Source of the DNA: Eledone cirrhosa
Taxonomy: Eukaryota
DNA length: 64,000 nucleotides
Assembly: GCA_964016885.1 (NCBI GenBank)
Contig: OZ024747.1
Location: 6,076,001-6,140,000 of the forward strand
Direction of reading: 5' to 3'
Part shown: positions 3,610 to 42,841 of the stretch, in pieces
How the letters are laid out: every line of letters begins with the position of its first letter
How positions within the stretch are numbered: the stretch's first letter is position 1
Translations under genes and position numbers: made by a program
Notes under the pieces: model-generated
Databases searched by the model: none
Seen by the model: the letters and a program-made list of their open reading frames with translations, nothing else
Told to the model about the DNA's origin: nothing

Positions 3610-6600
3610 ACTACATCTATCACATCTTAACTTAAACTACCCACCACTACACCTATCACATCTTAACACCTTAACTTAAACTACCCACCACTACATCTAT
3701 CACATCTTAACACCTTAACTTAAACTACCCACCACTACACCTACCACATCTTAACACCTTAACTTAAACTACCCACCACTACATCTATCACATCTTAACA
3801 CCTTAACTTAAACTACCCACCACTACACCTACCACATCTTAACACCTTAACTTAAACTACCCACCACTATACCTATCACATCTTAACACCTTAACTTAAA
3901 CTACCCACCACTACACCTATCACATCTTAACACCTTAACTTAAACTACCCACCACTACATCTATCACATCTTAACACCTTAACTTAAACTACCCACCACT
4001 ACACCTACCACATCTTAACACCTTAACTTAAACTACCCACCACTACACCTACCACATCTTAACACCTTAACTTAAACTACCCACCACTACACCTATCACA
4101 TCTTAACACCTTAACTTAAACTACCCACCACTACACCTACCACATCTTAACACCTTAACTTAAACTACCCACCACTACACCTACCACATCTTAACACCTT
4201 AACTTAAACTACCCACCACTACACCTATCACATCTTAACACCTTAACTTAAACTACCCACCACTACACCTACCACATCTTAACACCTTAACTTAAACTAC
4301 CCACCACTACATCTATCACATCTTAACACCTTAACTTAAACTACCCACCACTACACCTACCACATCTTAACACCTTAACTTAAACTACCCACCACTATAC
4401 CTATCACATCTTAACACCTTAACTTAAACTACCCACCACTACACCTATCACATCTTAACACCTTAACTTAAACTACCCACCACTACATCTATCACATCTT
4501 AACACCTTAACTTAAACTACCCACCACTACACCTACCACATCTTAACACCTTAACTTAAACTACCCACCACTACACCTACCACATCTTAACACCTTAACT
4601 TAAACTACCCACCACTACACCTATCACATCTTAACACCTTAACTTAAACTACCCACCACTACACCTACCACATCTTAACACCTTAACTTAAACTACCCAC
4701 CACTACATCTATCACATCTTAACACCTTAACTTAAACTACCCACCACTACACCTACCACATCTTAACACCTTAACTTAAACTACCCACCACTACATCTAT
4801 CACATCTTAACACCTTAACTTAAACTACCCACCACTACACCTACCACATCTTAACACCTTAACTTAAACTACCCACCACTATACCTATCACATCTTAACA
4901 CCTTAACTTAAACTACCCACCACTACACCTACCACATCTTAACACCTTAACTTAAACTACCCACCACTACATCTATCACATCTTAACACCTTAACTTAAA
5001 CTACCCACCACTACACCTACCACATCTTAACACCTTAACTTAAACTACCCACCACTACACCTATCACATCTTAACTTAAACTACCCACCACTACATCTAT
5101 CACATCTTAACACCTTAACTTAAACTACCCACCACTACACCTACCACATCTTAACACCTTAACTTAAACTACCCACCACTACATCTATCACATCTTAACT
5201 TAAACTACCCACCACTACATCTATCACATCTTAACACCTTAACTTAAACTACCCACCACTACACCTACCACATCTTAACACCTTAACTTAAACTACCCAC
5301 CACTACATCTATCACATCTTAACACCTTAACTTAAACTACCCACCACTACACCTACCACATCTTAACACCTTAACTTAAACTACCCACCACTACACCTAT
5401 CACATCTTAACACCTTAACTTAAACTACCCACCACTACACCTACCACATCTTAACACCTTAACTTAAACTACCCACCACTACACCTACCACATCTTAACA
5501 CCTTAACTTAAACTACCCACCACTACACCTATCACATCTTAACACCTTAACTTAAACTACCCACCACTACACCTATCACATCTTAACACCTTAACTTAAA
5601 CTACCCACCACTACACCTATCACATCTTAACACCTTAACTTAAACTACCCACCACTACACCTACCACATCTTAACACCTTAACTTAAACTACCCACCACT
5701 ACATCTATCACATCTTAACTTAAACTACCCACCACTACATCTATCACATCTTAACACCTTAACTTAAACTACCCACCACTACACCTACCACATCTTAACA
5801 CCTTAACTTAAACTACCCACCACTACATCTATCACATCTTAACACCTTAACTTAAACTACCCACCACTACACCTACCACATCTTAACACCTTAACTTAAA
5901 CTACCCACCACTACACCTATCACATCTTAACACCTTAACTTAAACTACCCACCACTACACCTATCACATCTTAACACCTTAACTTAAACTATCCACCACT
6001 ACACCTACCACATCTTAACACCTTAACTTAAACTACCCACCACTATATCTATCACATCTTAACACCTTAACTTAAACTACCCACCATTACCCCTATCACA
6101 TCTTTAACACCTTAACTTAAACTACCCACCACTACATCTATCACATCTTAACACCTTAACTTAAACTACCCACCACTACACCTACCACATCTTTAACACC
6201 TTAACTTAAACTACCCACCACTACATCTATCACATCTTAACACCTTAACTTAAACTACCCACCACTACATCTATCACATCTTTAACACCTTAACTTAAAC
6301 TACCCACCATTACCCCTATCACATCTTTAACACCTTAACTTAAACTACCCACCACTACACCTATCACATCTTTAACACCTTAACTTAAACTACCCACCAC
6401 TACATCTATCACATCTTAACACCTTAACTTAAACTACCCACCACTACATCTATCACATCTTTAACACCTTAACTTAAACTACCCACCACTACATCTATCA
6501 CATCTTAACACCTTAACTTAAACTACCCACCACTACATCTATCACATCTTAACACCTTAACTTAAACTACCCACCACTACACCTACCACATCTTAACACC

Positions 6601-7505
6601 TTAACTTAAACTACCCACCACTACATCTATCACATCTTTAACACCTTAACTTAAACTACCCACCACTACACCTACCACATCTTAACACCTTAACTTAAAC
6701 TACCCACCACTACATCTATCACATCTTAACACCTTAACTTAAACTACCCACCACTACATCTATCACATCTTAACACCTTAACTTAAACTACCCACCACTA
6801 CACCTACCACATCTTAACACCTTAACTTAAACTACCCACCACTACATCTATCACATCTTAACACCTTAACTTAAACTACCCACCACTACACCTACCACAT
6901 CTTAACACCTTAACTTAAACTACCCACCACTACATCTATCACATCTTAACACCTTAACTTAAACTACCCACCACTACACCTATCACATCTTAACACCTTA
7001 ACTTAAACTACCCACCACTACATCTATCACATCTTAACACCTTAACTTAAACTACCCACCACTACATCTATCACATCTTAACACCTTAACTTAAACTACC
7101 CACCACTACATCTATCACATCTTTAACACCTTAACTTAAACTACCCACCACTACACCTACCACATCTTAACACCTTAACTTAAACTACCCACCACTACAT
7201 CTATCACATCTTTAACACCTTAACTTAAACTACCCACCACTACATCTATCACATCTTAACACCTTAACTTAAACTACCCACCACTATATCTATCACATCT
7301 TTAACACCTTAACTTAAACTACCCACCACTACATCTATCACATCTTTAACACCTTAACTTAAACTACCCACCACTATATCTATCACATCTTTAACACCGT
7401 AACTTAAACTACCCACCACTACCCCTATCACATCTTTAACACCTTAACTTAAACTACCCACCACTATATCTATCACATCTTAACACCTTAACTTAAACTA
7501 CCCAC
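3610..7505. repeat. 44-bp minisatellite, about 88 copies (TTAACACCTTAACTTAAACTACCCACCACTACAYCTAYCACATC)
   Basis: Period of 44 measured (3661 to 3705); 36- and 45-bp variants present. Confidence 0.97.
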
Positions 7506-12058: not shown

Positions 12059-12640
12059 GAGGCACATGGCTTAGTGGTTAGAGCATTGGCCTTGCAATCG
12101 AAAGGTTGTGAGTTCAATTCTCAGACCGGGTGATGTGTTGTTTCCTTGAGCAAGACATTTTATTTCACATTGCTCCAGTTTACTCAGCTGTAGAAAGGAG
12201 ATGATAGGACTGGGGTCCATATCATTCCACTGCAAAGTGGTTGTGGAGGTGCCACGGCAAAAAAGCACCCAGCACTCACTGTAAATGAGGTTGGTGTTAG
12301 GAAGTGCATCCAGCTGTAGAAATCAAGCCAGAATCAGTTCCTGTCCCACCCTTGCAAGCAGGGAAAAGTGGACGCAAAATGAAATGATGATGATGATGAT
12401 ATATATGGTAGTGTGTGTATATATGGTAGTGTATATATATATATGGTAGTGTATATATATATATATGGTAGTGTGTATATATATATATATGGTAGTGTGT
12501 ATATATATATATATGGTAGTGTGTATATATATATATATGGTAGTGTGTATATATATATATATGGTAGTGTGTATATATATATATATGGTAGTGTGTATAT
12601 ATATATATGGTAGTGTATATATATATATATATATATGGTA

Positions 12641-12680
<40 letters not shown>

Positions 12681-13188
12681 TAGTGTATATATATATATAT
12701 ATATATATATGGTAGTGTATATATATATATATATATATATGGTAGTGTATATATATATATATATATATATGGTAGTGTATATATATATATATATATATAT
12801 ATATGGTAGTGTATATATATATATATATATATATGGTAGTGTATATATATATATATATATGGTAGTGTATATATATATATATATATATATGGTAGTGTAT
12901 ATATATATATATATATATATGGTAGTGTATATATATATATATATATATGGTAGTGTATATATATATATATATATATGGTAGTGTATATATATATATATAT
13001 ATGGTAGTGTATATATATATATATATGGTAGTGTATATATATATATATATATATATATGGTAGTGTATATATATATATATATATATATATGGTAGTGTAT
13101 ATATATATATATATATATATGGTAGTGTATATATATATATATATATATATATGGTAGTGTATATATATATATATATATATATATGGTA

Positions 13189-13226
<38 letters not shown>

Positions 13227-13486
13227 TAGTGTATATATATATATATATATATATATATGGTAGTATATATATATATATATATATATATATGGTAGTGTAT
13301 ATATATATATATATATATGGTAGTGTATATATATATATATATATATGGTAGTGTATATATATATATATATATATGGTAGTGTATATATATATATATATAT
13401 ATGGTAGTGTATATATATATATATATATGGTAGTGTATATATATATATATATATATATGGTAGTGTATATATATATATATATGGTA

Positions 13487-13522
<36 letters not shown>

Positions 13523-15034
13523 TAGTGTATATATATATATGGTAGTGTATATATATATATATATATATATGGTAGTGTATATATATATATATATATATAT
13601 GGTAGTGTATATATATATATATATATATATATGGTAGTGTATATATATATATATATATATATATATGGTAGTGTATATATATATATATATATGGTAGTGT
13701 ATATATATATATATATATGGTAGTGTATATATATATATATATATGGTAGTGTATATATATATATATATATGGTAGTGTATATATATATATATATATGGTA
13801 GTGTATATATATATATATATATGGTAGTGTATATATATATATATATATGGTAGTGTATATATATATATATATATATGGTAGTGTATATATATATATATAT
13901 ATATATATATGGTAGTGTATATATATATATATATATATGGTAGTGTATATATATATATATATATGGTAGTGTATATATATATATATATATATATGGTAGT
14001 GTGTATATATATATATATATATATGGTAGTGTATATATATATATATATATATATGGTAGTGTATATATATATATATATATATATGGTAGTGTATATATAT
14101 ATATATATATATATGGTAGTGTATATATATATATATATGGTAGTGTATATATATATATATATATATATATATGGTAGTGTATATATATATATATATATAT
14201 GGTAGTGTATATATATATATATATATATATGGTAGTGTATATATATATATATATATATGGTAGTGTATATATATATATATATATATATGGTAGTGTATAT
14301 ATATATATATATATATGGTAGTGTATATATATATATATATGGTAGTGTATATATATATATATATATATATGGTAGTGTATATATATATATATATATATAT
14401 GGTAGTGTATATATATATATATATATATATGGTAGTGTATATATATATATATATATATGGTAGTGTATATATATATATATATATATGGTAGTGTATATAT
14501 ATATATATATATATGGTAGTGTATATATATATATATATATATATGGTAGTGTGTATATATATATATATATATATGGTAGTGTGTATATATATATATATAT
14601 ATATGGTAGTGTGTATATATATATATATATATATGGTAGTGTGTATATATATATATATATATATGGTAGTGTGTATATATATATATATATATATGGTAGT
14701 GTATATATATATATATATATATATGGTAGTGTATATATATATATATATATATATGGTAGTGTATATATATATATATATATATATGGTAGTGTATATATAT
14801 ATATATATATATATGGTAGTGTGTATATATATATATATATATATGGTAGTGTGTATGTATATATATATATATATATGGTAGTGTGTATATATATATATAT
14901 ATATATATGGTAGGGTATATATATATATATATATATATGGTAGGGTATATATATATATATATGGTAGGGTATATATATATATATATGGTAGTGTGTGTAT
15001 ATATATATGGTAGTGTATGTATGTATGTATATAT
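11863..15034. repeat. GGTAGTGT(AT)n compound satellite, left part (interrupted by a SINE at 12058-12400)
   Basis: Directly visible. Confidence 0.97.
12058..12400 (+). mobile_element. tRNA-derived SINE family B (others at 25697-26034, 39795-40110 partial, 56239-56509 truncated)
   Basis: A-box TGGCTTAGTGG, B-box GAGTTCAATTC, CCTTGAGCAAGACA core, (ATG)n tail; near-identical copies. Confidence 0.87.
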
Positions 15035-15253
15035 ATATTTCGTTTCTGAATTTGTTTAGCAAGATTCTTTATCTGAAATCGTGTGTTGAAACCGATATTG
15101 TTATACTTTGGGAGGGTCATGTTGCCAATAAGAAACACACGCACCAGTTGCTTTCACTTCAATTTAATTTAATATATATTTATAAATTTACAAATTTATA
15201 AATTTCTGGTTGGTTGGTTGGTTCCACAACCAGATAGTTGTTTATATATATAT

Positions 15254-15298
15254 AGTCATAGTTCTTTCGTCACACACTCTGTGACCTCTTCAGTGACT
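15254..15298 (-). ncRNA. Hammerhead ribozyme copy in the inverted pseudo-LTR
   Basis: Reverse complement of 16990-17034. Confidence 0.82.
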
Positions 15299-15594
15299 GG
15301 GGATTTCTTTCTTCGTTTCTGTGCCTTTCCTTTCTTCTATCCTACGCCATTTTGTTTGTGTGTGGGTTGCGTGCTCAGTTTGCGCATGCGCCACATCCGG
15401 GTGTCTGTGTGTGTTTGTGTTCATTTTTCTATTTTTCTATTTATATTTGTTTGTTTATTTATTTATTTATTGTTGGTTGGTTGTTTGTTCTATGTGTGTG
15501 TGTGTTTTCATTTTGTCTTGTGTGTGTTTTCATTTTGTGTGTGTTTTCAATTGTAAGTTGTTTATATATGTGTGTGTGTGTTTTCATTTTGTCC

Positions 15595-16298
15595 TTAATT
15601 GTAAGTTGTGATGTTGCTGTTCCACTCATATTTTCTATTTAACTTTGGTTTTAATTCTTTTATGCTTACTGCCTCTGTAATTTGCCTAAACATTGCGTCT
15701 TTCTTGTGTGTGGATTCTATTTTTATTTCTATGCTCTCTAATTTACCCCTGTGTTCTATCTTAGCATGTTGGTAGAGCACAGATGATTCTTTACTATCTT
15801 GGAGGTCTCGCCAGTGTTCATTTATTCGTTCCCCTATACTACGAGCTGTCTCACCTATGTACACTATATTTTTGTTTCTACATTGTCCCTCAGTACATCT
15901 TATGCTATATACTACATTTCTAGTTTTACAGTTAATATGGGGGCTTATTTTACAGGTTATACATTTCTTATCTATACATGAGGGTCTTTGGAACGGGTAT
16001 GTCTTGCTAATAAGTGTTTTTACGGAGGTACCAGGTCTTTCTACTATCTTAATATTGAGATTATGTTTCTTTAGGGCCCTTCTAAATTTGTAGGCTAGTT
16101 CACCTCTAGGGGTTGTATTGATGAACATTACACTCTGGTATTTATTGCTATCATACCATGAGTTTATTCTATTGGCCTTGTTCTTAGTTCTTTCTATTCT
16201 ATTCCAAAATTTGCTCCTATACAAGGGGCAGGTCCCATTTATGTCATTATTTACCATTTTTTCCCATTTGGTTCTGGCTCCTTTATACACTCTGATTC
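15595..16298 (-). pseudogene. Inverted 5'-truncated copy of the PLE ORF end (linker + GIY-YIG)
   Basis: Translation matches the C-terminal ~230 aa of 18262-20958. Confidence 0.92.
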
Positions 16299-16693
16299 AA
16301 AGACCCTCATGTATAGATAAGAAATGTATAACCTGTAAAATAAGCCCCCATATTAACTGTAAAACTAGAAATGTAGTATATAGCATAAGATGTACTGAGG
16401 GACAATGTAGAAACAAAAATATAGTGTACATAGGTGAGACAGCTCGTAGTATAGGGGAACGAATAAATGAACACTGGCGAGACCTCCAAGATAGTAAAGA
16501 ATCATCTGTGCTCTACCAACATGCTAAGATAGAACACAGGGGTAAATTAGAGAGCATAGAAATAAAAATAGAATCCACACACAAGAAAGACGCAATGTTT
16601 AGGCAAATTACAGAGGCAGTAAGCATAAAAGAATTAAAACCAAAGTTAAATAGAAAATATGAGTGGAACAGCAACATCACAACTTACAATTAA
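16298..16693 (+). pseudogene. Direct 5'-truncated copy of the PLE GIY-YIG domain
   Basis: Matches 20563-20958; the hydrophobic N-terminus in the ORF track is antisense read-through of the inverted copy. Confidence 0.92.
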
Positions 16694-16887
16694 GGACAAA
16701 ATGAAAACACACACACACATATATAAACAACTTACAATTGAAAACACACACAAAATGAAAACACACACAAGACAAAATGAAAACACACACACACATAGAA
16801 CAAACAACCAACCAACAATAAATAAATAAATAAACAAACAAATATAAATAGAAAAATAGAAAAATGAACACAAACACACACAGACAC

Positions 16888-16943
16888 CCGGATGTGGCGC
16901 ATGCGCAAACTGAGCACGCAACCCACACACAAACAAAATGGCG
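16888..16943 (+). promoter_or_regulatory. Putative pseudo-LTR promoter: ETS (CCGGATGTG), NRF1 (GCGCATGCGCA) and YY1 (CAAAATGGCG) motifs; copies at 21145-21200 (+) and 15345-15400 (-)
   Basis: Three consensus-like motifs within 56 bp in otherwise CpG-poor DNA, upstream of the ribozyme and the ATG. Confidence 0.55.
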
Positions 16944-16989
16944 TAGGATAGAAGAAAGGAAAGGCACAGAAACGAAGAAAGAAATCCCC

Positions 16990-17034
16990 AGTCACTGAAG
17001 AGGTCACAGAGTGTGTGACGAAAGAACTATGACT
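16990..17034 (+). ncRNA. Minimal type I hammerhead ribozyme in the 5' pseudo-LTR
   Basis: AGUCA-CUGAAGA-G-GUCACA(GAGUG)UGUGAC-GAAA-G(AA)C-UA-UGACU; stems I and II pair perfectly; predicted cleavage after CUA at 17029. Confidence 0.82.
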
Positions 17035-17167
17035 ATATATATATAAACAACTATCTGGTTGTGGAACCAACCAACCAACCAGAAATTTATAAATTTGTAA
17101 ATTTATAAATATATATTAAATTAAATTGAAGTGAAAGCAACTGGTGCGTGTGTTTCTTATTGGCAAC

Positions 17168-18289
17168 ATGACCCTCCCAAAGTATAACAATATCGGTTTC
17201 AACACACGATTTCAGATAAAGAATCTTGCTAAACAAATTCAGAAACGAAATATCGTAAGCCTTAGCCAGGCTAACAAGATACTGAAAACCACCATGTTCT
17301 GTTGTCTACGAAAAACCATAACATCTCGACAACTACACTTCATAAAACTGTGCACCACTTCTAGAATCTACACCAACACCATCAATACCGACGTTAGAAG
17401 ATTACAACTCACCAAAAAACAAGCAGATAGGCTAAAACGAACTTTAATTCTAAACATAAAAAAGAAGATCTATAGAGAATTAAGTCATCAAGAAAAACTA
17501 AAGCGTAACCTAATAGATGAAATATCTAAAATCACCACACCAGCAGAAAAACTAACATTTATAAGCCTTATACGCCCCGAAGAACAGTACATTACTCAAG
17601 AATGTAATAAGCACTTTAACAGAAAATTAAAGTGGCTTAAACAGGCAAAGCTAAATCGGGATACTATAGAGTATACCAATAGATATCCCGACAAAATTGA
17701 CGGTATCAACATGGCCGACACCTCATTATCTGAAGAGTTCAACAATAAAAATACCAACATTTATGGAAACACGAAAATAGATAATAATGAAATGTCTGTG
17801 TTACGTTTGCCACCCAAATTTGCGACATTCAAGAAGGTAAATATGATTAGTTGTCTGTCAGAAATAGAAAAATCATTTACGAAACTACGCTGGAGCATCA
17901 AAAACAAAAACAAAAGCAACAATATACGCACACACATATACAACACACATCCCAACAACAACAGACACACAGACACAAACAACAATAACAACAACAATAG
18001 CAACATACCCAGATACAATACCAACAATAGCAACATACCCAGATACAACAGACACGCAGACACAAACAACAATAACAACACACACGGAGACAACAATAAC
18101 AACAACACACACATCAACAACAACAACAACAGCAACATACCCAGATACAACAACAACAGACAAGCAAACACAAACAACAATAACAACACACACAACAACG
18201 ATAACACACACACACACGGAGACAACAACACACATCAACAACAACAACACACACACATTCAATGCCTCTCACCACCACTACAATCTTAA
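17168..18289 (+). CDS. Penelope-like element ORF, N-terminal part (basic domain + Asn/Thr/His-rich tract)
   Basis: ATG at 17168 (MTLPKYNN); PLE-like N-terminal motifs LRLPPKF and EIEKSFTKLRW; overlaps the RT ORF in another frame. Confidence 0.8.
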   Translation: MTLPKYNNIGFNTRFQIKNLAKQIQKRNIVSLSQANKILKTTMFCCLRKTITSRQLHFIKLCTTSRIYTNTINTDVRRLQLTKKQADRLKRTLILNIKKKIYRELSHQEKLKRNLIDEISKITTPAEKLTFISLIRPEEQYITQECNKHFNRKLKWLKQAKLNRDTIEYTNRYPDKIDGINMADTSLSEEFNNKNTNIYGNTKIDNNEMSVLRLPPKFATFKKVNMISCLSEIEKSFTKLRWSIKNKNKSNNIRTHIYNTHPNNNRHTDTNNNNNNNSNIPRYNTNNSNIPRYNRHADTNNNNNTHGDNNNNNTHINNNNNSNIPRYNNNRQANTNNNNNTHNNDNTHTHGDNNTHQQQQHTHIQCLSPPLQS

Positions 18290-20958
18290 CAAACACACAG
18301 ACACAGAAAACAAGTAATGACAGTAGCACAGAAATCAGAGAAATAAGAGAAAGTAATAGGATTAAAAGGAGTAGGGAGACTAAGGACAAAGAGAATAACC
18401 AAGACGAACACACAGACACACAAAATAGGGTAGATAACAACATTGAGCCAGTGGAAAGAGACAGGAGTAATTATGAGAGACATAGAAACAACCATGAAGC
18501 TGAGGCTGCTGCTGTTGGTGGAAATAGAAACAACACAACTAACAATAGCGCAAGTACACATAAAGCAGCAGCCTGGAACTCTCCGTTTTATAATCCCTCC
18601 GATAAATCATTCGACCTACGACGAGTCCACGCCACGACTTTGCCATTTAACAAACGCACGCAGTTGCCGTCGCAGGTCGATGAACAAACAGAAGCACAAT
18701 TTAGTATAGCTAAATCCGAACTTAGAAATATTATAGAACAGTATAGCAAGAAGCATAATAGAAGAGAGGCCCAGCAACTGGGAGAAGAATCTGCAAATGG
18801 CTTGCGTAAGCTCATGCAGCGCTCGCGTAATGGAGAGATAGCATGCTTTCCAACAGACAAGTCTGGCAGAATGTCGGTTGACAGCCTGCCAAACTACATC
18901 CAGGCAATGCAACCCCACATCACTAACACAAGAGAGGTAACACCACAGGAGCATGAGGACAGAGAAAAAACCCTCAATGCCCATATGGTGATGTGGACAA
19001 ATATAATGCAGCCCAACAAAAGGACTGCCAACAACTTCCAGGCCTGGAACAATGACGTGCCGGCATTGTATGGGCTTCGAAAGGACCATAAAACGGGCTG
19101 GGACCCTGTCGCGGGACCACCAACACGGCCAGTCTGTGGGGCTAACATTGCTAGTAACTACAGACTGTCCTACTTCCTCTCCCTGATCATACGCCCCATC
19201 ATTGAGATGTCCCCAGATGTGTGTGACAGCACGGAGGACCTCCTCAGCAGAATCGACGCGGGTAACCGATCTGGGGACCTAACAAACTGCATAATAGGCA
19301 GTATGGATGTTGTGTCCCTGTATCCATCTATTGACGTGGATTTTGCTGTGGAGAAATGCGTCGAAATGATCAGCGAGAGCAAGGTTGAGTTCCGTGGGAT
19401 TGATACCAGTGAGCTGGGACTTCTACTTAAGCTTACCCATAGTAATAGTTACCTAGACACTTATGACCTTAGCAACCTGTGCCCTACAAGACCAGCAAGA
19501 GGCAGACCACCTACCATTACCTCAATGGCCAAGAAAACCCACACAGATAGATGGAACGGGTGGACCAGAGCCATACGGACACCCGAAAACCACGATGAAC
19601 TGAAGAAAATGATTGCACATGCGGTAGGGGCCAGCATAAAATTAACCCTTAAGGAACATATGTTCAAATTTAATAGTAAAACATATGCCCAAGAGGAAGG
19701 AGCAGCCATTGGTGTTAGCATTGCAGGCGACATAGCTAACTTGTTCATGGTATGGTGGGACAGTAGACTTAAACAAAAACTTAAAGAACAATTAGAAGAC
19801 AGATTAACCCTGATAATGTACTCCCGCTACGTAGATGATATAAACATCGTAGTTAAGACACCCCCACTAAAGAACAGTCAGGAACCTGAGAAAAACACAA
19901 TGGAAAGCATCCAGCAAATAGCAAACTCCATCCACCAGAGCATTAGAGTTACTATAGACTACCCAAGTAGACACCCCAACCATCGATTACCTGTACTAGA
20001 CACAGAGCTCTGGTTAGATACTATTAACAACCAAAAACAAATCCTCCATTCCCATTATGCCAAACCCATGACTTCCAAACATCTGATCCACCGAAACTCG
20101 GCCATTTCGGACCATACCAAAATCAACATACTGATTGCGGATTTGGTACGGGTGATGAGAAATGTGTCCCGCATGTGCAACCCCAAAGAACTAGAGAGAC
20201 ACATACAACACTTCATCCACCGTATGCAGTTCTCTGGCTACAATCAGAGAGATAGAATCAGAGTGTATAAAGGAGCCAGAACCAAATGGGAAAAAATGGT
20301 AAATAATGACATAAATGGGACCTGCCCCTTGTATAGGAGCAAATTTTGGAATAGAATAGAAAGAACTAAGAACAAGGCCAATAGAATAAACTCATGGTAT
20401 GATAGCAATAAATACCAGAGTGTAATGTTCATCAATACAACCCCTAGAGGTGAACTAGCCTACAAATTTAGAAGGGCCCTAAAGAAACATAATCTCAATA
20501 TTAAGATAGTAGAAAGACCTGGTACCTCCGTAAAAACACTTATTAGCAAGACATACCCGTTCCAAAGACCCTCATGTATAGATAAGAAATGTATAACCTG
20601 TAAAATAAGCCCCCATATTAACTGTAAAACTAGAAATGTAGTATATAGCATAAGATGTACTGAGGGACAATGTAGAAACAAAAATATAGTGTACATAGGT
20701 GAGACAGCTCGTAGTATAGGGGAACGAATAAATGAACACTGGCGAGACCTCCAAGATAGTAAAGAATCATCTGTGCTCTACCAACATGCTAAGATAGAAC
20801 ACAGGGGTAAATTAGAGAGCATAGAAATAAAAATAGAATCCACACACAAGAAAGACGCAATGTTTAGGCAAATTACAGAGGCAGTAAGCATAAAAGAATT
20901 AAAACCAAAGTTAAATAGAAAATATGAGTGGAACAGCAACATCACAACTTACAATTAA
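18262..20958 (+). CDS. Penelope-like reverse transcriptase + C-terminal GIY-YIG endonuclease
   Basis: Motifs PTDKSG, LYGLRKDHK, TRPV, SMDVVSLYPSI, QEEGAAIG, RYVDD, LPVLD, HYAKP; Cys linker CIDKKCITC; NVVY...YIGET.RS..ER..EH; RQITEAVSI....LNRKYEW. Confidence 0.95.
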   Translation: MPLTTTTILTNTQTQKTSNDSSTEIREIRESNRIKRSRETKDKENNQDEHTDTQNRVDNNIEPVERDRSNYERHRNNHEAEAAAVGGNRNNTTNNSASTHKAAAWNSPFYNPSDKSFDLRRVHATTLPFNKRTQLPSQVDEQTEAQFSIAKSELRNIIEQYSKKHNRREAQQLGEESANGLRKLMQRSRNGEIACFPTDKSGRMSVDSLPNYIQAMQPHITNTREVTPQEHEDREKTLNAHMVMWTNIMQPNKRTANNFQAWNNDVPALYGLRKDHKTGWDPVAGPPTRPVCGANIASNYRLSYFLSLIIRPIIEMSPDVCDSTEDLLSRIDAGNRSGDLTNCIIGSMDVVSLYPSIDVDFAVEKCVEMISESKVEFRGIDTSELGLLLKLTHSNSYLDTYDLSNLCPTRPARGRPPTITSMAKKTHTDRWNGWTRAIRTPENHDELKKMIAHAVGASIKLTLKEHMFKFNSKTYAQEEGAAIGVSIAGDIANLFMVWWDSRLKQKLKEQLEDRLTLIMYSRYVDDINIVVKTPPLKNSQEPEKNTMESIQQIANSIHQSIRVTIDYPSRHPNHRLPVLDTELWLDTINNQKQILHSHYAKPMTSKHLIHRNSAISDHTKINILIADLVRVMRNVSRMCNPKELERHIQHFIHRMQFSGYNQRDRIRVYKGARTKWEKMVNNDINGTCPLYRSKFWNRIERTKNKANRINSWYDSNKYQSVMFINTTPRGELAYKFRRALKKHNLNIKIVERPGTSVKTLISKTYPFQRPSCIDKKCITCKISPHINCKTRNVVYSIRCTEGQCRNKNIVYIGETARSIGERINEHWRDLQDSKESSVLYQHAKIEHRGKLESIEIKIESTHKKDAMFRQITEAVSIKELKPKLNRKYEWNSNITTYN

Positions 20959-21246
20959 GGACAAAATGAAAACACACACACACATATATAAACAACTTAC
21001 AATTGAAAACACACACAAAATGAAAACACACACAAGACAAAATGAAAACACACACACACATAGAACAAACAACCAACCAACAATAAATAAATAAATAAAC
21101 AAACAAATATAAATAGAAAAATGAACACAAACACACACAGACACCCGGATGTGGCGCATGCGCAAACTGAGCACGCAACCCACACACAAACAAAATGGCG
21201 TAGGATAGAAGAAAGGAAAGGCACAGAAACGAAGAAAGAAATCCCC

Positions 21247-21291
21247 AGTCACTGAAGAGGTCACAGAGTGTGTGACGAAAGAACTATGACT
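21247..21291 (+). ncRNA. Hammerhead ribozyme copy in the 3' pseudo-LTR
   Basis: Identical to 16990-17034. Confidence 0.82.
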
Positions 21292-21450
21292 ATATATATA
21301 TAAACAACTATCTGGTTGTGGAACCAACCAACCAACCAGAAATTTATAAATTTGTAAATTTATAAATATATATTAAATTAAATTGAAGTGAAAGCAACTG
21401 GTGCGTGTGTTTCTTATTGGCAACATGACCCTCCCAAAGTATAACAATAT

Positions 21451-21487
21451 ATATATATATATATATATATATGGTAGTGTATGTATG

Positions 21488-21538
<51 letters not shown>

Positions 21539-21551
21539 TAGTGTATGTATG

Positions 21552-21602
<51 letters not shown>

Positions 21603-21615
21603 TAGTGTATGTATG

Positions 21616-21650
<35 letters not shown>

Positions 21651-21693
21651 TAGTGTATGTATATATATATATATATATGGTAGTGTATGTATG

Positions 21694-21746
<53 letters not shown>

Positions 21747-21860
21747 TAGTGTATGTATATATATATATATATATATATATGGTAGTGTATGTATATATAT
21801 ATATATGGTAGTGTATGTATATATATATATATGGTAGTGTATGTATATATATATATATAT
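21451..21860. repeat. GGTAGTGT(ATGT)x(AT)n satellite, right part
   Basis: Same motif and orientation as the left array; the ATGT-containing variant occurs on both sides of the PLE. Confidence 0.97.
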
Positions 21861-22795
21861 TATCAATATAGTAAAGCAGTGAATTGACAGCATTGGATAA
21901 AATACTTTACAGTATTTGTTCAAACTTCGAGTTCAAATCCTGCTGAGGTCAACTTTGCTTTTCATCCTTCTTAGTCGATAAAATAAAGTACCTGTAATAC
22001 ACTGGGTCGATTTAATTGACTTTCTCCTTTCCTAAAATTGTTGGCCTTGTGCCTAATTCAGAAAGCATTATTATTGTTATATTTGGGGGGGGGGGGTTAT
22101 GTTGTCCTAATATTGCCAAAAATAGTAAAACGCACTCAGTTTGGTTTGGTTTTCACTTCAGTATATTTTTATTATTAATTTAGCCGGAAATCAATGTTTA
22201 TTATTGATTGACCAACAGTTAAAATATAAATATAATTTCTCAAATTTCTTTTGTCACACCAAACAGTGAGTGTGTTTTACTATTTCTGGCAATATTATAA
22301 CAATGGCAGTATTGGTAGAGGGTCAGACATGCTTTCCAACGTAGTTACATCCCTTTACGATCTGAGTTCAAATCCCGCCGAGGTTAACTTTGCCTTTCAT
22401 CCTTACAGGGTCGATAAAATAAAGTACCAGTAATGTACTGGGTAATTGCTGGCCTTGTGCCAAAACTAGAAACAATTATAACAATATGACCCTCCCCAAA
22501 TATAACAATATCTGTTTCAACACACAATTTCATATCAAAAACCTTGTAAAACATTATTATTTTATTCTGGCGGTGGATTGGCAGTATCGGTAGAGCGTCA
22601 GACGCCAAGCTTTTCAGCAAAGAGTTACGGCCCTTTATGGTCTGAGTAAAATCCCGCCGAGGTTAACTTTGCCTTTCATCCTTACGGGGTCGATAAAATA
22701 AAGTACCAGTAATACACTGGGATAATTGCTGGCCTTGTGCCAAAAGTATAAACTGTTGTTGTAGTTGTTATAGATTTGTTGGTGTCTTATTTCAG

Positions 22796-26614: not shown

Positions 26615-26843
26615 AACCAGCTGTACATGTATGGAGGTGTAGTTGGTAACAACATCTCCAATGAATTTTGGATGTTTGACCTCGGTCAAAAGGTTTGGAC
26701 CCTTTTGAAGAATTCCTCCTGGGAGCAGTACCAGTTGGCTGTGTCTGGTCACACGGCCCATGTTGTTGATGGGGTCATGCATGTCTTTTTTGGTCACAGC
26801 CCGATCTATGGATACCTACATTGTATTCAAGAATTTTATTTTG
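26615..26843 (+). CDS. ATRN: Attractin exon, kelch
   Basis: ttccag|AACC...TTTG|gtcagt; NQLYMYGG...AVSGHTAH...FFGHSPIYGYLHCIQEF. Confidence 0.92.
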
Positions 26844-27743
26844 GTCAGTCTCACATCTTTTTTGGTTTTCGTCTCGCTTCTTTCATCTCACTTCTTTCAT
26901 CTCATTTCTTTCATCTCACCAGTTTCATCTCACCTGTTGTTGCTGTTTGTAAATTTATATCTCTTAGGTTCTGTTGATTTAACTACTAACATCCTGTAGT
27001 GATTTAGCAGAAAATATCTACAAGATCATCGGGTCTGTTAATTCAAATGTTTATAGTGTCTTTACTAGTAGACAAATCATTGTGAAAATTTGCAGTATTA
27101 GAATAAAAATTAAATTTTTTAATATGATACAGTCATAATGCTGTTTTGTACTTTTCGAAAATATCTTGCTAATATAATTTGATGTGCTACATGACATTAA
27201 GTTAAGACTCTTGGATCTCAAATAATCCCCCCCCCCCCCATCCACACTTATTAAATTTTCAGGTTCTCCCCACCCCTGTTCTTATTCCATTCCCATCTCG
27301 CTTATTAAATTTTGCTAATCTATCTCTGGTAAAATTTTGTTTTAAGTGGTATCATTCCAGTAACAATTAATTTTTTACATTAAAAATCATACATGACAAA
27401 AAAAAGTACATTACAAAAATCCCATATGTTATAAAATAAATAGGATGGGTTGGGGTCTCAATATGTAAACTAAACAACTAATTCTGGTTTAAAAAAAAAA
27501 AAAACAAGGGGGACAACCTAGAAAAATTGCCAATTTTCCAAAGACCCTGCTTATTCCACCCCTGCCCCCCCCCCGTTTATTCCAACCTCCCTATTATTTG
27601 GGTCTCGAGTGTGTGTGTATGTATGTATATATATATATATACACACACGACCCACACACCCAGTGTATGAGGGTTAGAAATCATGTATGTGCTGTGGTGT
27701 GGTGTGTATTCATATTATTTACATAATTGTCTGTACTTTCCAG

Positions 27744-27927
27744 GTAACAAAAGCTGGTTTATACCAGAAACGTCGGGAGCAATTGTAAAAAATACCTGTT
27801 GGCACTCCAGTGTCTATGATAAGATTCGGCAGTTAATCTATGTCTATGGTGGATACCATTCTGTCAGTTCAGCAACTAATCACATCACCGATAAATTATA
27901 TTCATACAATCCAAAAACTCGATATTG
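27744..27927 (+). CDS. ATRN: Attractin exon, kelch
   Basis: ttccag|GTAAC...TATTG|gtgtgt; SW...TSGAIV...HSSVYD...IYVYGGY...DKLYSYN. Confidence 0.92.
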
Positions 27928-28156
27928 GTGTGTATATCTCTTTATTTATTGTTTTTTTATTTTTTTTATTTATTTGTGTTCTAGCCGAGGGGCTGAGGTC
28001 ATGCTGGGGCACTGTCTACATTTATATGCGTTCATACTTAAACAGCCAAAAACTTTTCTCAGGGTTTTAGGTATTTATGTAGATACAGACGCTCTCTTTC
28101 TCTCTCTCTCTCTCTCATTTGTGTGTGTGTGTGTACACACACTGTCATGTGTTTCC

Positions 28157-28189
<33 letters not shown>

Positions 28190-28310
28190 ACATACACACA
28201 CAAATGTGCAATATTAAATCTGCTAGAATTATGTGCTTCTCAATAAACAAACTCAATAGACTTTATCTAGAGCAAATCAAATGTAGATTATATATATATA
28301 TCTATATACA

Positions 28311-28438
<128 letters not shown>

Positions 28439-28700
28439 AGAGCCATATATACAGAGAAGGCACAGTATTTTGTACATATACTAAATACATATTACAGAAA
28501 ATATGTTCTAGATAGAAACTGTGTCTTCTCTGGACATATGGTCCTCCCTCTCTTTCCATATATATATATCTTCTATATTTGACTTACATACAGACACAAA
28601 TATAAGTGATCATTTTGGTGCCACAGCAAAAAGCACTCTGTCCACACTGGTTGGTGTTAGGAAGGGCATCCATATTTTGATTGTTGTTTTGTTTCTGTAG

Positions 28701-28858
28701 GCAAGTATTACGGAGTAGTGACTCACCTCGCTTCCTTCATTCTGCAATTCTGACATCCGATGGATTCATGCTGACATTTGGTGGCAATACCCACAATGAG
28801 GCTTCCGTGAACTCTGCTGCCAAGTGTTACTCCTTAGATTTTATGGCATATGATGTTG
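28701..28858 (+). CDS. ATRN: Attractin exon, kelch
   Basis: tgtag|GCAA...GTTG|gtaag; RFLHSAIL..MLTFGGNTHNEASVNSAAKCYSLDFMAYDV. Confidence 0.94.
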
Positions 28859-29086
28859 GTAAGTACTCCTTTCTACTGTCTCTGTTGGTCTTTGTCAGTC
28901 TCTTTGTTTGTCTTTCTATCTGTCTTACAAATTTAAACCTAAACCCAGTCATTCAAGCAATGAAAGATATTTGTTATGATAGGGGAAAGAAACCTTCTTC
29001 TTCTTAAGACCCAGGAAAAGTATTATGACTGTTATAACAGGAGCAAGAAGCCTTCTTCTTCTTCGTAAGACCCAGGAAATGTTTAA

Positions 29087-29305
29087 CCCTTTAGCATTTA
29101 TATTACTCTATTTTTACAATTGTATTTTTGCAGTAAAGGCTTTATCTTACATAATTATCTCATAAAATCGAATCTATAAGATTTTGATATTATTTATTTT
29201 GAGAACAATAGCTTAACGTCAGTATGAGTGGCCAGTTACAACTGGTTTCAAGAGAAAAAGGTGAGAGAATTCTGGCCGGATATGGCCGGTTTAAATGCTA
29301 AAGGG
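29087..29305. mobile_element. piggyBac-type MITE (other copies at 41989-42264 and 43938-44140)
   Basis: TTAA|CCCTTTAGCATTTA...TAAATGCTAAAGGG|TTAA: 14-bp TIR and TTAA TSD; three copies. Confidence 0.85.
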
Positions 29306-29385
29306 TTAATGAATGTTTTAATAAGACAAACAAAAAAGAGATTCTCTCAGTCTGAGAACTATCCCAATGTGTTTTGCTCTTGTAG

Positions 29386-29470
29386 AATGTGATCATTGGT
29401 ATTGTTTACAGAAACCACATCTACAGAAAGATGTGTCACGGTTTGGTCATGCTGCGATTTCACACAACAA
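29386..29470 (+). CDS. ATRN: Attractin exon, kelch
   Basis: tgtag|AATGT...CAACAA|gtaag; ECDHWYCLQKPHLQKDVSRFGHAAISHN. Confidence 0.92.
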
Positions 29471-29575
29471 GTAAGATATTTGCTTTCTTACCTTGGTTTT
29501 CTTATGTCTTTTTCTTACTTTTTATTGCTTTGAATAATTGTTTGCTATAAAATTATCCTGCTACATCTTTCTCTC

Positions 29576-29748
29576 TGTCATAAAACAGTATTACTGTGAT
29601 AATGTGTCTTCCATATTGCTGTGTGTCATAAAACAGTATTACTGTGATAATGTGTCTTCCATATTGCTGTGTGTCATAAAACAGTATTGCTGTGATAATG
29701 TGTCTTCCATATTGCTGTGTGTCATAAAACAGTATTACTGTGATAATA
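29576..29748. repeat. 48-bp tandem repeat, about 3.5 copies
   Basis: TGTCATAAAACAGTATTACTGTGATAATGTGTCTTCCATATTGCTGTG. Confidence 0.9.
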
Positions 29749-29773
29749 TAACTATCTCTCTGTTGTGTTTCAG

Positions 29774-29838
29774 TGCAATGTATATCTTTAATGGATTCAA
29801 TGGCAGGATGCTACGTGATATTATAAAATACACCACTG
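29774..29838 (+). CDS. ATRN: Attractin exon, kelch end
   Basis: tttcag|TGCA...ACTG|gtaag; AMYIFNGFNGRMLRDIIKYT. Confidence 0.92.
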
Positions 29839-30036
29839 GTAAGAACCTCCCAATCACTGTCTTTTTCTTTTATTCACCCACCCATTTATTTGAATATTGT
29901 ATAATTCCAGTCTTACTCCTTGTATGTGTGTGTGTGTATTGATTGAGGATGGTTTTTTAACCACCTAACCACTTTCTCTCTACATCGTATCGGCACACAC
30001 ACATTAACTTGTAGCATTTTTATTCTGAAATTCCAG

Positions 30037-30171
30037 GAAATTGCTCAGCATTCACAAATGCCACCGTATGCAACCAAAGCCAGCCAGGAGTACCGTGTTT
30101 TTGGTCAGCAGATTCCTGTGTCTCCAGAAGTCAATTGACCAATAAGAAGGACTATGTGTGTCCTACAAACA
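30037..30171 (+). CDS. ATRN: Attractin exon, PSI-like
   Basis: ttccag|GAAA...AAACA|gtaag; GNCSAFTNATVCNQSQPGVPCFWSADSCVS. Confidence 0.88.
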
Positions 30172-30847
30172 GTAAGTTAACCTCTTGTCCTGATCCTCCT
30201 CTTCTGTGTTGATTAGTCGGTGGGAGCACTGTTTTTTACCCACGATGAATCTGGCAGACCCACCTCTCCACCTAGTCATCTTGAATACAACAAACATCAA
30301 CTTCTTTACGTTCAAGCATCTCTACAACCTCATTTGAGCGACCTTTCAATGTGTGTATGTTCATGGTACCAACTCTGAAGTTGGGATGGATGGGTTGGAG
30401 GGGCAGGGAGGGACGTGGGAGATGGAATTATGTTGGTCATCCGTGTCTGAAATAAAGAGGGGTCCTTGTATTCTCATCCTGCGGCGGGAGGTGAATTTAT
30501 CTTTATCTGTGACATTGTCATTGAGTGTTTAGACTTTCAAATTCCGCAGTCCACCCATCAAACAGGTCTAAACTTAAGGAGTAGTAACCGAGGTGGTAAC
30601 TTTGCTATACTGATTTGTAAGAGTTACTATAAGCCACTCAATTATTATTGGACCATATAGCAATGGTGGGGTGGGAAATGAGTAACTTTAGGAGAAGGAG
30701 CAAAAGTCGGTTTTTATAACCTGTCCCTACCCCCACGTCACCCTAAAGACCTTGTGTACAACAAAGATAATAGTAGATGACCGTGTCTTGTTCATACAAG
30801 ACTATTTCTGGTTTTGTTTCTATGGTTGAATACCCTTCCTAACACCA

Positions 30848-33301
30848 ACCACTTTACAGTGTGGACTGTGGGAATTTTATTGTGGCTCCAACAAGACCAC
30901 TTTACAGTGTGGACTGGGAGCATTTTATTGTGGCTCCAACAAGACCACTTTACAGTGTGGACTGGGAGCATTTTATTGTGGCTCCAACAAAACCACTTTA
31001 CAGTGTGGACTGGGAGCATTTTATTGTGGCTCCAACAAGACCACTTTACAGTGTGGACTGGGAGCATTTTATTGTGGCTCCAACAAGACCACTTTACAGT
31101 GTGGACTGGGAGCATTTTATTGTGGCTCCAACAAAACCACTTTACAGTGTGGACTGGGAGCATTTTATTGTGGCTCCAACAAAACCACTTTACAGTGTGG
31201 ACTGGGAGCATTTTATTGTGGCTCCAACAAGACCACTTTACAGTGTGGACTGGGAGCATTTTATGGTGGCTCCAACAAGACCACTTTACAGTGTGGACTG
31301 GGAGCATTTTATTGTGGCTCCAACAAGACCACTTTACAGTGTGGACTGGGAGCATTTTATTGTGGCTCCAACAAGACCACTTTACAGTGTGGACTGGGAG
31401 CATTTTATGGTGGCTCCAACAAGACCACTTTACAGTGTGGACTGGGAGCATTTTATGGTGGCTCCAACAAGACCACTTTACAGTGTGGACTGGGAGCATT
31501 TTATTGTGGCTCCAACAAGACCACTTTACAGTGTGGACTGGGAGCATTTTATTGTGGCTCCAACAAGACCACTTTACAGTGTGGACTGGGAGCATTTTAT
31601 TGTGGCTCCAACAAGACCACTTTACAGTGTGGACTGGGAGCATTTTATGGTGGCTCCAACAAGACCACTTTACAGTGTGGACTGGGAGCATTTTATTGTG
31701 GCTCCAACAAGACCACTTTACAGTGTGGACTGGGAGCATTTTATGGTGGCTCCAACAAGACCACTTTACAGTGTGGACTGGGAGCATTTTATTGTGGCTC
31801 CAACAAGACCACTTTACAGTGTGGACTGGGAGCATTTTATTGTGGCTCCAACAAGACCACTTTACAGTGTGGACTGGGAGCATTTTATTGTGGCTCCAAC
31901 AAGACCACTTTACAGTGTGGACTGGGAGCATTTTATGGTGGCTCCAACAAGACCACTTTACAGTGTGGACTGGGAGCATTTTATTGTGGCTCCAACAAGA
32001 CCACTTTACAGTGTGGACTGGGAGCATTTTATTGTGGCTCCAACAAGACCACTTTACAGTGTGGACTGGGAGCATTTTATTGTGGCTCCAACAAAACCAC
32101 TTTACAGTGTGGACTGGGAGCATTTTATTGTGGCTCCAACAAGACCACTTTACAGTGTGGACTGGGAGCATTTTATTGTGGCTCCAACAAGACCACTTTA
32201 CAGTGTGGACTGGGAGCATTTTATTGTGGCTCCAACAAGACCACTTTACAGTGTGGACTGGGAGCATTTTATGGTGGCTCCAACAAGACCACTTTACAGT
32301 GTGGACTGGGAGCATTTTATGGTGGCTCCAACAAGACCACTTTACAGTGTGGACTGGGAGCATTTTATTGTGGCTCCAACAAGACCACTTTACAGTGTGG
32401 ACTGGGAGCATTTTATGGTGGCTCCAACAAGACCACTTTACAGTGTGGACTGGGAGCATTTTATGGTGGCTCCAACAAGACCACTTTACAGTGTGGACTG
32501 GGAGCATTTTATTGTGGCTCCAACAAGACCACTTTACAGTGTGGACTGGGAGCATTTTATTGTGGCTCCAACAAGACCACTTTACAGTGTGGACTGGGAG
32601 CATTTTATGGTGGCTCCAACAAGACCACTTTACAGTGTGGACTGGGAGCATTTTATTGTGGCTCCAACAAGACCACTTTACAGTGTGGACTGGGTGCTTT
32701 TCGTTGTGGCTCCAACAAGACCACTTTACAGTGTGGACTGGGTGCTTTTCGTTGTGGCTCCAACAAGACCACTTTACAGTGTGGACTGGGAGCATTTTAT
32801 TGTGGCTCCAACAAGACCACTTTACAGTGTGGACTGGGAGCATTTTATGGTGGCTCCAACAAGACCACTTTACAGTGTGGACTGGGAGCATTTTATTGTG
32901 GCTCCAACAAGGCCACTTTACAGTGTGGACTGGGAGCATTTTATGGTGGCTCCAACAAGACCACTTTACAGTGTGGACTGGGTGCTTTTCGTTGTGGCTC
33001 CAACAAGACCACTTTACAGTGTGGACTGGGAGCATTTTATTGTGGCTCCAACAAGACCACTTTACAGTGTGGACTGGGAGCATTTTATGGTGGCTCCAAC
33101 AAGACCACTTTACAGTGTGGACTGGGAGCATTTTATTGTGGCTCCAACAAGACCACTTTACAGTGTGGACTGGGAGCATTTTATGGTGGCTCCAACAAGA
33201 CCACTTTACAGTGTGGACTGGGAGCATTTTATGGTGGCTCCAACAAGACCACTTTACAGTGTGGACTGGGAGCATTTTATTGTGGCTCCAACAAGACCAC
33301 T
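30848..33301. repeat. 48-bp minisatellite, about 51 copies
   Basis: Unit CCACTTTACAGTGTGGACTGGGAGCATTTTATTGTGGCTCCAACAAGA. Confidence 0.97.
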
Positions 33302-33409
33302 ATGATAAAAAAGATAAATGGACCTCCATTGGTTTCAATAACACAATGTTCCTGCTGTCTAATCATTGGCACAATATATTTGTTAAATAAGCAAACACAT
33401 TGTGTTCCA

Positions 33410-33465
<56 letters not shown>

Positions 33466-33505
33466 TGCAAATCCTAATATATATACATGTCTCTCTCTCT
33501 CTCTT

Positions 33506-33541
<36 letters not shown>

Positions 33542-33583
33542 CATGCAAATCCTAATATATATATATACATGTCTCTCTCTCTT

Positions 33584-33620
<37 letters not shown>

Positions 33621-33691
33621 GCATGCATATCCAAATATATATATATATACATGTCTCTCTCTGACTATATATATGTATGTCTACATTTCAG

Positions 33692-33816
33692 ATGATGATG
33701 CCATGTGTTCTAAGATCAAGAACTGCAAGAGTTGTCTATCAAATTATAAGAAATGTTCGTGGTGCAATGAGAAGTGTATGTCTTCCTCGGACTGCATCGA
33801 TCACCAAAGAAAACTG
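33692..33816 (+). CDS. ATRN: Attractin exon, PSI
   Basis: tttcag|ATGA...AACTG|gtaat; CSKIKNCKSCLSNYKKCSWCNEKC. Confidence 0.88.
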
Positions 33817-34882
33817 GTAATATATTAGCTTTCCCCTACACCACCACCATATTTACTACACCTACATGTTTACCCTTTACTTCCACTCCTCTTCCACCAC
33901 CAACATAGCCACTTTCCTATATTTTAGTCCTGCGTATGGCATTTCGCTATTATTGTCATCTCCAAAAGTTTCACTCACACACCCACACACACACACATAC
34001 ACGCACTCATACACATACATATATACATACACCCCACCACCACCACCATCATCATCATCATCAGGTTTTTACGTCCACTTTTTCATGCTGGCATGGGTTG
34101 GAGGAGGCTATTATGAGGCAGTCTTTCTGAAAGCCAACCGATACTTTATACTTACAGGTATGCTGTACTCTGCCATTCTTCGTTGAAACACTTCACTCAT
34201 GAATGTATTGTTTACGCAGGACATAAACAAATAACATCCACTCGCTTTAAATGTTGATATAGAGACACATGTAAATTGATACCTACACACATGTATGTGT
34301 GTGTGTGTGTGTATTTATATGTATGCCATCATCACCGTTTTATGTCCGTTCTTCCATGCCAGCATGGGTTTGACGGGTTGTCCTGTTATGGGAAGTGTCT
34401 AGTCGGCTGACCTTATCTTGCTCATATGGGAACTGATTCTGGCTTGATTTCTACAGCTGGATGCCCTTCCTAACACCAACCTCATTTACAGGTTGGTGTT
34501 AGGAATGTATATATATATGTATATATATATGTATATATTTATGTATGTATGTATGTATGTATATATCATCATCATCATCATCAACGTTTAACGTCCGTGT
34601 TCCACGCTTGCATGGGTTTGGACGGGGGTAGTCCCACTTGAGGCAAGAGTGATTGTCTTGCTCGCATAGGACTGTCTGGCAGGTTTTCTACAGTTGGATG
34701 CCCTTCCTAACACCAACCACATTTACAGTGTGGGTCTGGGAGGTTTTTACCGTGTTGCCTACACGGCATATGTATATATTTATGTATGTATGTATATATG
34801 TATATATTTATGTATGTATATATACATATATGTATATATGTATATATATGTATATATACATATATATATATATGTAAATTTG

Positions 34883-34926
<44 letters not shown>

Positions 34927-34936
34927 AATTTGTATG

Positions 34937-34993
<57 letters not shown>

Positions 34994-36406: not shown

Positions 36407-36475
<69 letters not shown>

Positions 36476-36677
36476 CACATACATGCGCACACACACACAC
36501 ACACACATTTCTGTTAGAAATCCTATTATATTTGTGTACTCATTTGTTGCACTGAGTACACAGTATTGAGTACCTAATTACTCCCCCCCCCCTCTATATA
36601 TATCACTCTAGCTATCTTGCCTTCACTCCTTACTCTACATCTCTCTGTCTACCACTCTCCCTTTTTATTTCATTTTA

Positions 36678-39758: not shown

Positions 39759-39792
<34 letters not shown>

Positions 39793-42713: not shown

Positions 42714-42745
<32 letters not shown>

Positions 42746-42753
42746 TCTCTCTA

Positions 42754-42841
42754 CAGGGTGTCCCCCCCCCCCAAAAAAAAATGTATACACATTATTATTA
42801 GAATGCTGTTGAAGTGTGTATACATTTTTTGGGACACCCTG
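42754..42841. mobile_element. Tc1/mariner-type MITE, 88 bp
   Basis: TA|CAGGGTGTCCC..AAAAAATGTATACAC...GTGTATACATTTTTTGGGACACCCTG|TA. Confidence 0.85.

Follow-up and report, generated by a model that had tools for sequence, protein, structure and literature searches.

The locus

Positions 15035-21450 of the 64,000-nucleotide stretch of Eledone cirrhosa DNA analysed here (contig OZ024747.1, 6,076,001 to 6,140,000; the window) hold a young, frameshifted copy of an endonuclease-bearing (EN+) Penelope-like element (PLE). The insertion lies inside a satellite and consists of two arms joined head to head, a 5'-truncated inverted arm on the left and a partial tandem on the right. Its outer ends stop at different positions of the element, and only the left one carries a 60-nt tail. 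This head-to-head shape is the family's usual landing product, and nearly always one end is tailed and the other untailed. The features of the locus are listed below in window coordinates with the strand in brackets.

12432-15034 (no strand): left part of the target satellite, (TA)n-GGTAGTG, from the satellite and its unit list
15035-16298 (-): inverted 5'-truncated arm, element position 20255 to the equivalent of 17253, with the tailed end, from self-alignment
15035-15094 (-): 60-nt tail (equal to 17194-17253), at the left end only, its outer ATAT merging with the flank, from self-alignment and family counts
15254-15298 (-): hammerhead-like motif, the copy within the inverted arm, mapped through the 100% match
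16298-16298 (no strand): head-to-head junction with one shared C, from self-alignment
16298-17193 (+): 5' pseudo-long terminal repeat (pseudo-LTR; truncated upstream unit), holding the near-private 16645G that is common to all three repeat copies
16920-16941 (+): 5'-truncation hot spot adjoining AAAATGGCG, possibly the RNA 5' end
16990-17034 (+): type I hammerhead-like motif, predicted cut after 17029, found by eye and pattern
17168-20958 (+): single open reading frame (ORF) of the family; here a frameshift splits it into pieces of 373 aa and 898 aa
17190-17193 (+): start site 1, ATAT then CG within the element; 15,557 stops (into AT) against 13,265 read-throughs genome-wide
17250-17253 (+): start site 2, ATAT then CG within the element; 13,375 stops (into AT) against 488 read-throughs genome-wide
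17900-18300 (+): asparagine-rich low-complexity insert, variable in length, containing the frameshift (near 18220-18290)
19600-19863 (+): reverse-transcriptase (RT) core with YVDD at 19828-19839 (RVT_1, E 2.7e-4, below the Pfam cut-off; alignment)
20563-21450 (+): 3' pseudo-LTR, lacking 8 nt that both other copies have, with the untailed end and a hammerhead-like copy at 21247-21291
20575-20601 (+): zinc-finger-like CX4CxxC motif of the linker, CIDKKCITC, kept in 10 aligned proteins
20638-20913 (+): C-terminal GIY-YIG endonuclease with two cysteines within the core (PF01541, 24.8 bits against a cut-off of 22.6)
21451-21860 (no strand): right part of the target satellite, the same satellite as on the left

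Self-alignment of the window reproduced all coordinates of an earlier note on this DNA, which had described the left arm, the partial tandem, the single shared C and AATAT ends at the equivalents of 17253 and 17193. The left arm matches 20255-21450 at 99.3% with one 8-nt gap, and 15035-15990 equals 16298-17253 at 100% over 956 nt, so that the arm ends 86 nt beyond the ATG at 17168. In the right part (16298-21450), 16298-17193 matches 20563-21450 with one 8-nt gap, and the outer end lies 26 nt inside the ORF. The three repeat copies are identical apart from the gap in the 3' copy, and the left arm has no contiguous source in any part of the right one. Both outer ends carry AATAT running into the flank, where pairing with (AT)n is possible for ATAT only (4 nt). 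The local unit variant of the flanking satellite (12432-15038 and 21447-21860) resumes across the insertion. The earlier note had called the locus an unusually clean record of integration; this description is not supported, since the structure is the usual one for the family and the target duplication of the locus itself is unreadable inside the satellite.

Ends of the family and their pairing

Genome counts were made with exact-match patterns, and backwards control patterns gave 0 matches in every count. For a 27-mer lying directly before the ends, 24,983 exact matches were counted. The stop counts at 17193 and 17253 listed above show that the ends are non-random and that the window locus is typical. 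A tally of genomic 3' ends had been proposed in the earlier note, and it places them at two fixed positions in AT flanks. (AT)n stands outside 231/236 paired ends and 105/122 single ends. Folding of the two start sites revealed no unusual stability (z -0.4 to -0.7). On contig C1 (132947049-132947575), twelve matches of the site-2 read-through word recur with a spacing of 46 nt and represent a minisatellite from the element's tail region.

Pairing of the ends was analysed among the matches listed for contig C1 and in 200 fetched stretches, of which 160 came from contig C1 (end or repeat patterns), 38 surrounded near-identical long copies and 2 served the allele test. Among the first matches listed for this contig there are 48 outward-facing neighbour pairs within 7 kb, and 43 of them combine site 1 with site 2, where 50% would be expected (p 6e-9 against independent choice); one homotypic neighbour of these 48 pairs is absent from the fetched set. 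Outward pairs outnumber every other neighbour class (48 against at most 4). Insertions with no more than 70 uncovered bases between the ends were regarded as contiguous. One tailed and one untailed end were found in 117/118 contiguous inverted insertions, the window included (92/93 in the first sample and 25/25 in the second). Besides, mini-insertions of 51-53 nt recur at L057, L129, L130, L164 and L175 and consist of about 33-37 nt from site 1 and 16-18 nt from site 2. Their junctions differ slightly and may mark early pause points.

Target duplications and relation of the arms

For target duplications, the flanks plus the terminal ATAT were searched for an identical non-alternating repeat. 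Eight insertions have a duplication of 12-14 nt: 14 nt, both ATAT counted, in 5/92 insertions, which was reached in 0/2000 shuffles, 12 nt in a further 2/92, and 14 nt in 1/25 insertions of the second sample. At L190, which lies in non-repetitive DNA, a 12-nt duplication is of unique sequence. Most informative duplications keep the four bases that match the element. These results fit nicks 12-14 nt apart, or less if the ATAT is element-derived, with each 3' end reading into one arm as would follow from the geometry of target-primed reverse transcription.

In 42/86 simple insertions the arm without a tail extends upstream beyond the tailed one by more than 15 nt, so that neither contains the other, which argues against self-priming and against a mirror produced by assembly. 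In the remaining insertions the arms end together (within 15 nt; 11/86) or are nested (33/86), and several of the arms that end together sit at a natural palindrome near 17085-17114. Arm lengths are correlated (rho 0.45, n=87).

Moreover, the two arms of an insertion usually belong to a single haplotype. The own partner arm is the best or tied-best match in 34/46 cases, some of these comparisons having had few rivals, and 17/58 loci have alleles found in both arms but at no other sampled locus. Differences between arms comprise 191 private against 35 family variants. The 16645G of the window has five matches in the genome, three in the window insertion and two in older truncated copies, and no donor with the window's allele was found in the assembly. 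All five genome matches of an allele from L102 lie within the L102 insertion. A test allele of L100 was rejected as private because three of its six matches lie outside its locus. At L039 the untailed terminal repeat derives from an older subfamily (about 57 substitutions) and the other two copies are young, as in a chimera or recombinant.

Proposed mechanism and alternative explanations

We regard the locus as one of the ordinary, young insertions of this high-copy EN+ PLE, which probably arose in one coupled event, with both strands extended from nicks in a TA tract. The nicks in the two strands would be 12-14 bases apart and the reverse transcriptase would extend either free end, site 1 being used by one 3'-OH and site 2 by its counterpart, on element RNA of one donor. 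A protein-RNA complex would set the start sites and the 4-nt ATAT pairing would be no more than an aid. The two cDNAs would stop independently, and their head-to-head joining would involve little or no homology. As both sites lie near the probable 5' end of the RNA, the enzyme would need to pass to the RNA's 3' repeat, perhaps by a jump or round a circle, to reach the ORF and thereby rebuild the pseudo-LTR. This template route is the least secure part of the account. The earlier note had already proposed that reverse transcription was primed twice, on the opposite strands of a single cut site, and this proposal is supported by the 12-14 nt duplications, the non-nested arms and the AT flanks of the paired ends.

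As a tentative extension, which we regard as possible rather than likely, PLE integration might be an obligate asymmetric double priming. An enzyme dimer would prime the two strands of a cut staggered by 12-14 nt, using two fixed sites close to the 5' end of an RNA of one unit, and would then either jump from the RNA 5' end (the hot spot at 16920-16939) to the 3' repeat or travel round a circle. If true, such a process would resemble strong-stop transfer in retroviruses and account at once for the tail, the inverted arm and the rebuilding of the pseudo-LTR.

Several observations weigh against coupled priming from two sites. L129 is a tailed/tailed pair and L177 possibly a second one, which failed the coverage filter. 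In the C1 samples 112 ends are unpaired against 176 paired, a number that includes the sister family, tiny arms and cut fetches; therefore, single-ended insertions exist too. At 14 nt, 24/92 flank pairs differ and 63/92 are uninformative. In L102 the units are identical within each arm and differ between the arms, which could point to two RNAs, and gene conversion, visible at L111/L110 and L194, can make arms look alike. Among tailed and untailed arms, 15 and 12 of 87 respectively stalled in the tail or stopped early (at 60 nt or less). Stalling in the tail is thus not commoner than the early stops of untailed arms, and nothing points to a queue of two enzymes on a single RNA. In public reads for 15900-16700 the family-wide depth swamps the stretch and no listed read or contig crosses the junction. 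One raw read run contained a few opposite-strand joints, which belong to other places; read runs with small word shares were left out. Furthermore, Frangieh et al. 2024 (PMC11167929) found that the start site did not differ from one strand to the other.

L102-L104 (contig C4, 116262000-116283000) is an insertion of 20.9 kb with two full units per arm and all ORFs open, in which the units of one arm differ from those of the other by one base and 18 nt. L110 and L111 lie about 190 kb apart on contig C3 and have the same inversion junction (16958/19371) between unlike unique flanks and outer haplotypes. Their common centre is probably due to ectopic conversion or to re-copying of the whole inverted unit.

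Among the alternatives, two-ended priming in which AT microhomology selects the sites and tandem donors supply read-through RNA survives best, and we still consider it unlikely. It was the explanation preferred in the earlier note, and it accommodates the ATAT at both sites, the (AT)n outside nearly all paired ends, the four matching bases kept in the duplications and the existence of multi-unit tandems. However, the internal AT tract at 17034-17044, which is longer than the ATAT of the sites, was read through 8,423 times and formed an end 6 times at most, and L190 and L124 are joined to the 17193 site with a match of about 1 nt. Therefore, pairing may help but does not choose the sites. Besides, an independent choice by pairing would not yield the almost exclusively mixed pairs, and the assembly has no donor for the window's allele.

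A slightly poorer case can be made for fold-back or self-priming, in which one cDNA (or an antisense RNA) would fold on itself and the first arm would serve as template for the inverted one. Self-priming from palindromic junctions was proposed for rotifer elements (PMC3846280), and it would agree with the common haplotype of the arms and with the 11 insertions whose arms end together, several of them at the palindrome. Nevertheless, neither arm contains the other in about half of the simple insertions, and in the window the left arm is no contiguous copy of the right one, with a junction overlap of 1 nt. Fold-back is thus refuted as a general route and could explain the palindromic minority.

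We find it very improbable that two separate insertions entered one TA tract or that later recombination or conversion produced the shape. TA tracts do take several nearby insertions (L036, L052, L108, L129) and conversion was seen, but no TA bases remain between the arms, one duplication spans both ends, and the excess of outward pairs over the other neighbour classes is not accounted for by separate insertions. Least credible is an assembly fold-back at the window locus, which the satellite context, the identity of the arms over 956 nt and the lack of any record spanning the junction might suggest, but the arms are not mirror images, their ends differ in the fixed manner of the family, the satellite continues in register and the form recurs at 117 other loci.

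Template route and 5' ends

The 5' ends of the arms accumulate at 16920-16939 in two samples, with 17/94 and 8/44 of the arms at risk against a background of 2-3% per 20 nt. The adjoining AAAATGGCG is presumably a YY1-like motif, and no strong fold was found at 16920-16941. It is possible that this hot spot corresponds to the 5' end of the RNA. If so, four in five cDNAs pass it seamlessly, and therefore a jump to the 3' repeat, a circle or upstream starts would be required. An RNA circle has been proposed before (PMC4209133). No pile-up of 5' ends was observed at the predicted ribozyme cut at 17029 (5/112 and 0/56 in the bin 17020-17039). A pile at 17120-17159 is partly an alignment artefact of AT-rich sequence, and one at 16798 was removed as an artefact of a subfamily indel. 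Multi-unit arrays were set aside as proof of a rolling circle because L194 and L111 show later conversion.

Classification and comparison with known elements

Among 43 full units examined, many have an ORF open over 1,257-1,291 aa and eight stop at 358-388 aa like the window copy. The closest protein among the 120 matches listed, which include no named reference sequence, is a hypothetical protein of Octopus vulgaris (67%), and the N-terminal 246 aa gave no match in Pfam. The endonuclease has the CCHH signature (VVYSIRC-TEGQC...YIGET with downstream histidines, alignment read by eye). The hammerhead-like motif is composed of a 5-bp helix I, CUGAAGA, an extra G, a 6-bp helix II, GAAA and a short helix III, and helix II is paired at 6/6 positions in 222/234 parsed copies. 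It fits the hammerhead description in PMC4209133 and is a candidate ribozyme; a search of Rfam for a ribozyme returned no relevant match.

Using the features described by Craig et al. 2021 (PMC8557442), we assign the window element from its sequence to the canonical EN+ PLEs of the Neptune/Nematis type. The RT is followed by a C-terminal GIY-YIG in one ORF, the pseudo-LTRs form a partial tandem and inverted arrangement with an optional tail, and a putative hammerhead lies inside the pseudo-LTR. The zinc-finger-like CX2-5CxxC linker between RT and endonuclease is that of Neptune/Nematis, and its full length leans towards Neptune, since PMC8557442 terms the Nematis linker reduced. The Hydra clade (no CCHH, DKT, a CxCX5C linker) is ruled out by the CCHH, a DKS and the CX4CxxC linker, Naiad and Chlamys (GIY-YIG N-terminal to the RT) by the C-terminal GIY-YIG, and Penelope/Poseidon, which lack a linker zinc finger, by the linker motif.

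Similar structures were described for several PLEs, and the partial tandem with inverted pseudo-LTR is, as the earlier note had stated, a published shape. Craig et al. reported that canonical EN+ PLEs form partial tandems with an inverted 5'-truncated copy and often with just one of the two ends tailed; known copy numbers of Naiads reach tens of thousands (PMC8557442). Neptune/Nematis elements resemble the window family in the RT, the CX2-5CxxC linker, the C-terminal GIY-YIG with CCHH and the (TA)n targets. They have a tail of 30-40 nt, whereas the window family has one of 60 nt, a long ORF with an N-rich insert and the one-tail rule. In Drosophila virilis, Schostak et al. 2008 (PMC2377424) described a Penelope form C that likewise consists of two copies in tandem, with truncation of the 5' copy and large inverted repeats on either side; its promoter lies inside the pseudo-LTR and a 34-bp repeat at the ORF start. 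Like Penelope/Poseidon in general, it is without the linker zinc finger of the window family.

The closest experimental parallel is the Anolis Poseidon element PAc, which was studied in vitro by Frangieh et al. (PMC11167929). As in the window family, two internal RT starts early in the ORF bound the tail, cut sites are AT-rich, both strands are cut and extended, and a hammerhead lies in the repeat. PAc belongs to another clade, and its starts lie 111-118 nt into the ORF and are non-homologous to the target, in contrast to 26 and 86 nt and an ATAT end in the window family. No cross-strand pairing of the sites is reported in the accessible text. The secondary role of microhomology in our family agrees with their observation that no homology is needed. 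Elements of Adineta vaga (Arkhipova et al. 2013, PMC3846280) also have inverted pseudo-LTRs, an optional tail on one of them, duplications of 8-10 bp and N-rich ORF inserts. The published explanation is self-priming with an antisense template, against which the non-nested arms of the window family speak.

The locus is routine and of a structural type known from D. virilis, rotifers and several clades, and the pairing numbers are apparently new. We found no pairing count or genomic test of double priming in the open-access literature; subscription reviews and supplements may already state the pairing. In L1 twin priming, the second target strand primes a second cDNA and an inversion arises inside the target duplication. 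There the internal position of the second priming event varies and the two arms have no overlap, whereas the window family has two starts at fixed positions 60 nt from each other and its arms do overlap.

The formation of inverted and tandem PLE structures has been named as unsolved (PMC8557442, PMC2377424), which is why this family matters. It offers about 29,000 countable ends together with young copies and numerous intact ORFs. A tail often present at one end thereby becomes a near rule, and the spacing of the nicks is obtained. Genome data alone separate double priming from fold-back here, and the family is a good substrate for a direct test in vitro.

Neighbouring sequences

Exons of an attractin-like gene lie at 26627-46264 (+) of the window, with matches to the ATRN beta-propeller and PSI. 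A decayed fragment (86%) of a sister Penelope family with a common ORF start was found at 22476-22550. Judging from the fetched stretches, members of this sister family seem to stop at site 1, with other tail ends near the equivalents of 17234-17238. A fragment of an unrelated non-LTR reverse transcriptase is located at 56480-56896 (-; RVT_1, E 3e-14). Moreover, the window holds two homogeneous minisatellites with units of 44 nt and 48 nt (3613-7505 and 30848-33301), and degraded recurrences of the 48-49-nt unit occur at 7725, 40344 and 55784.

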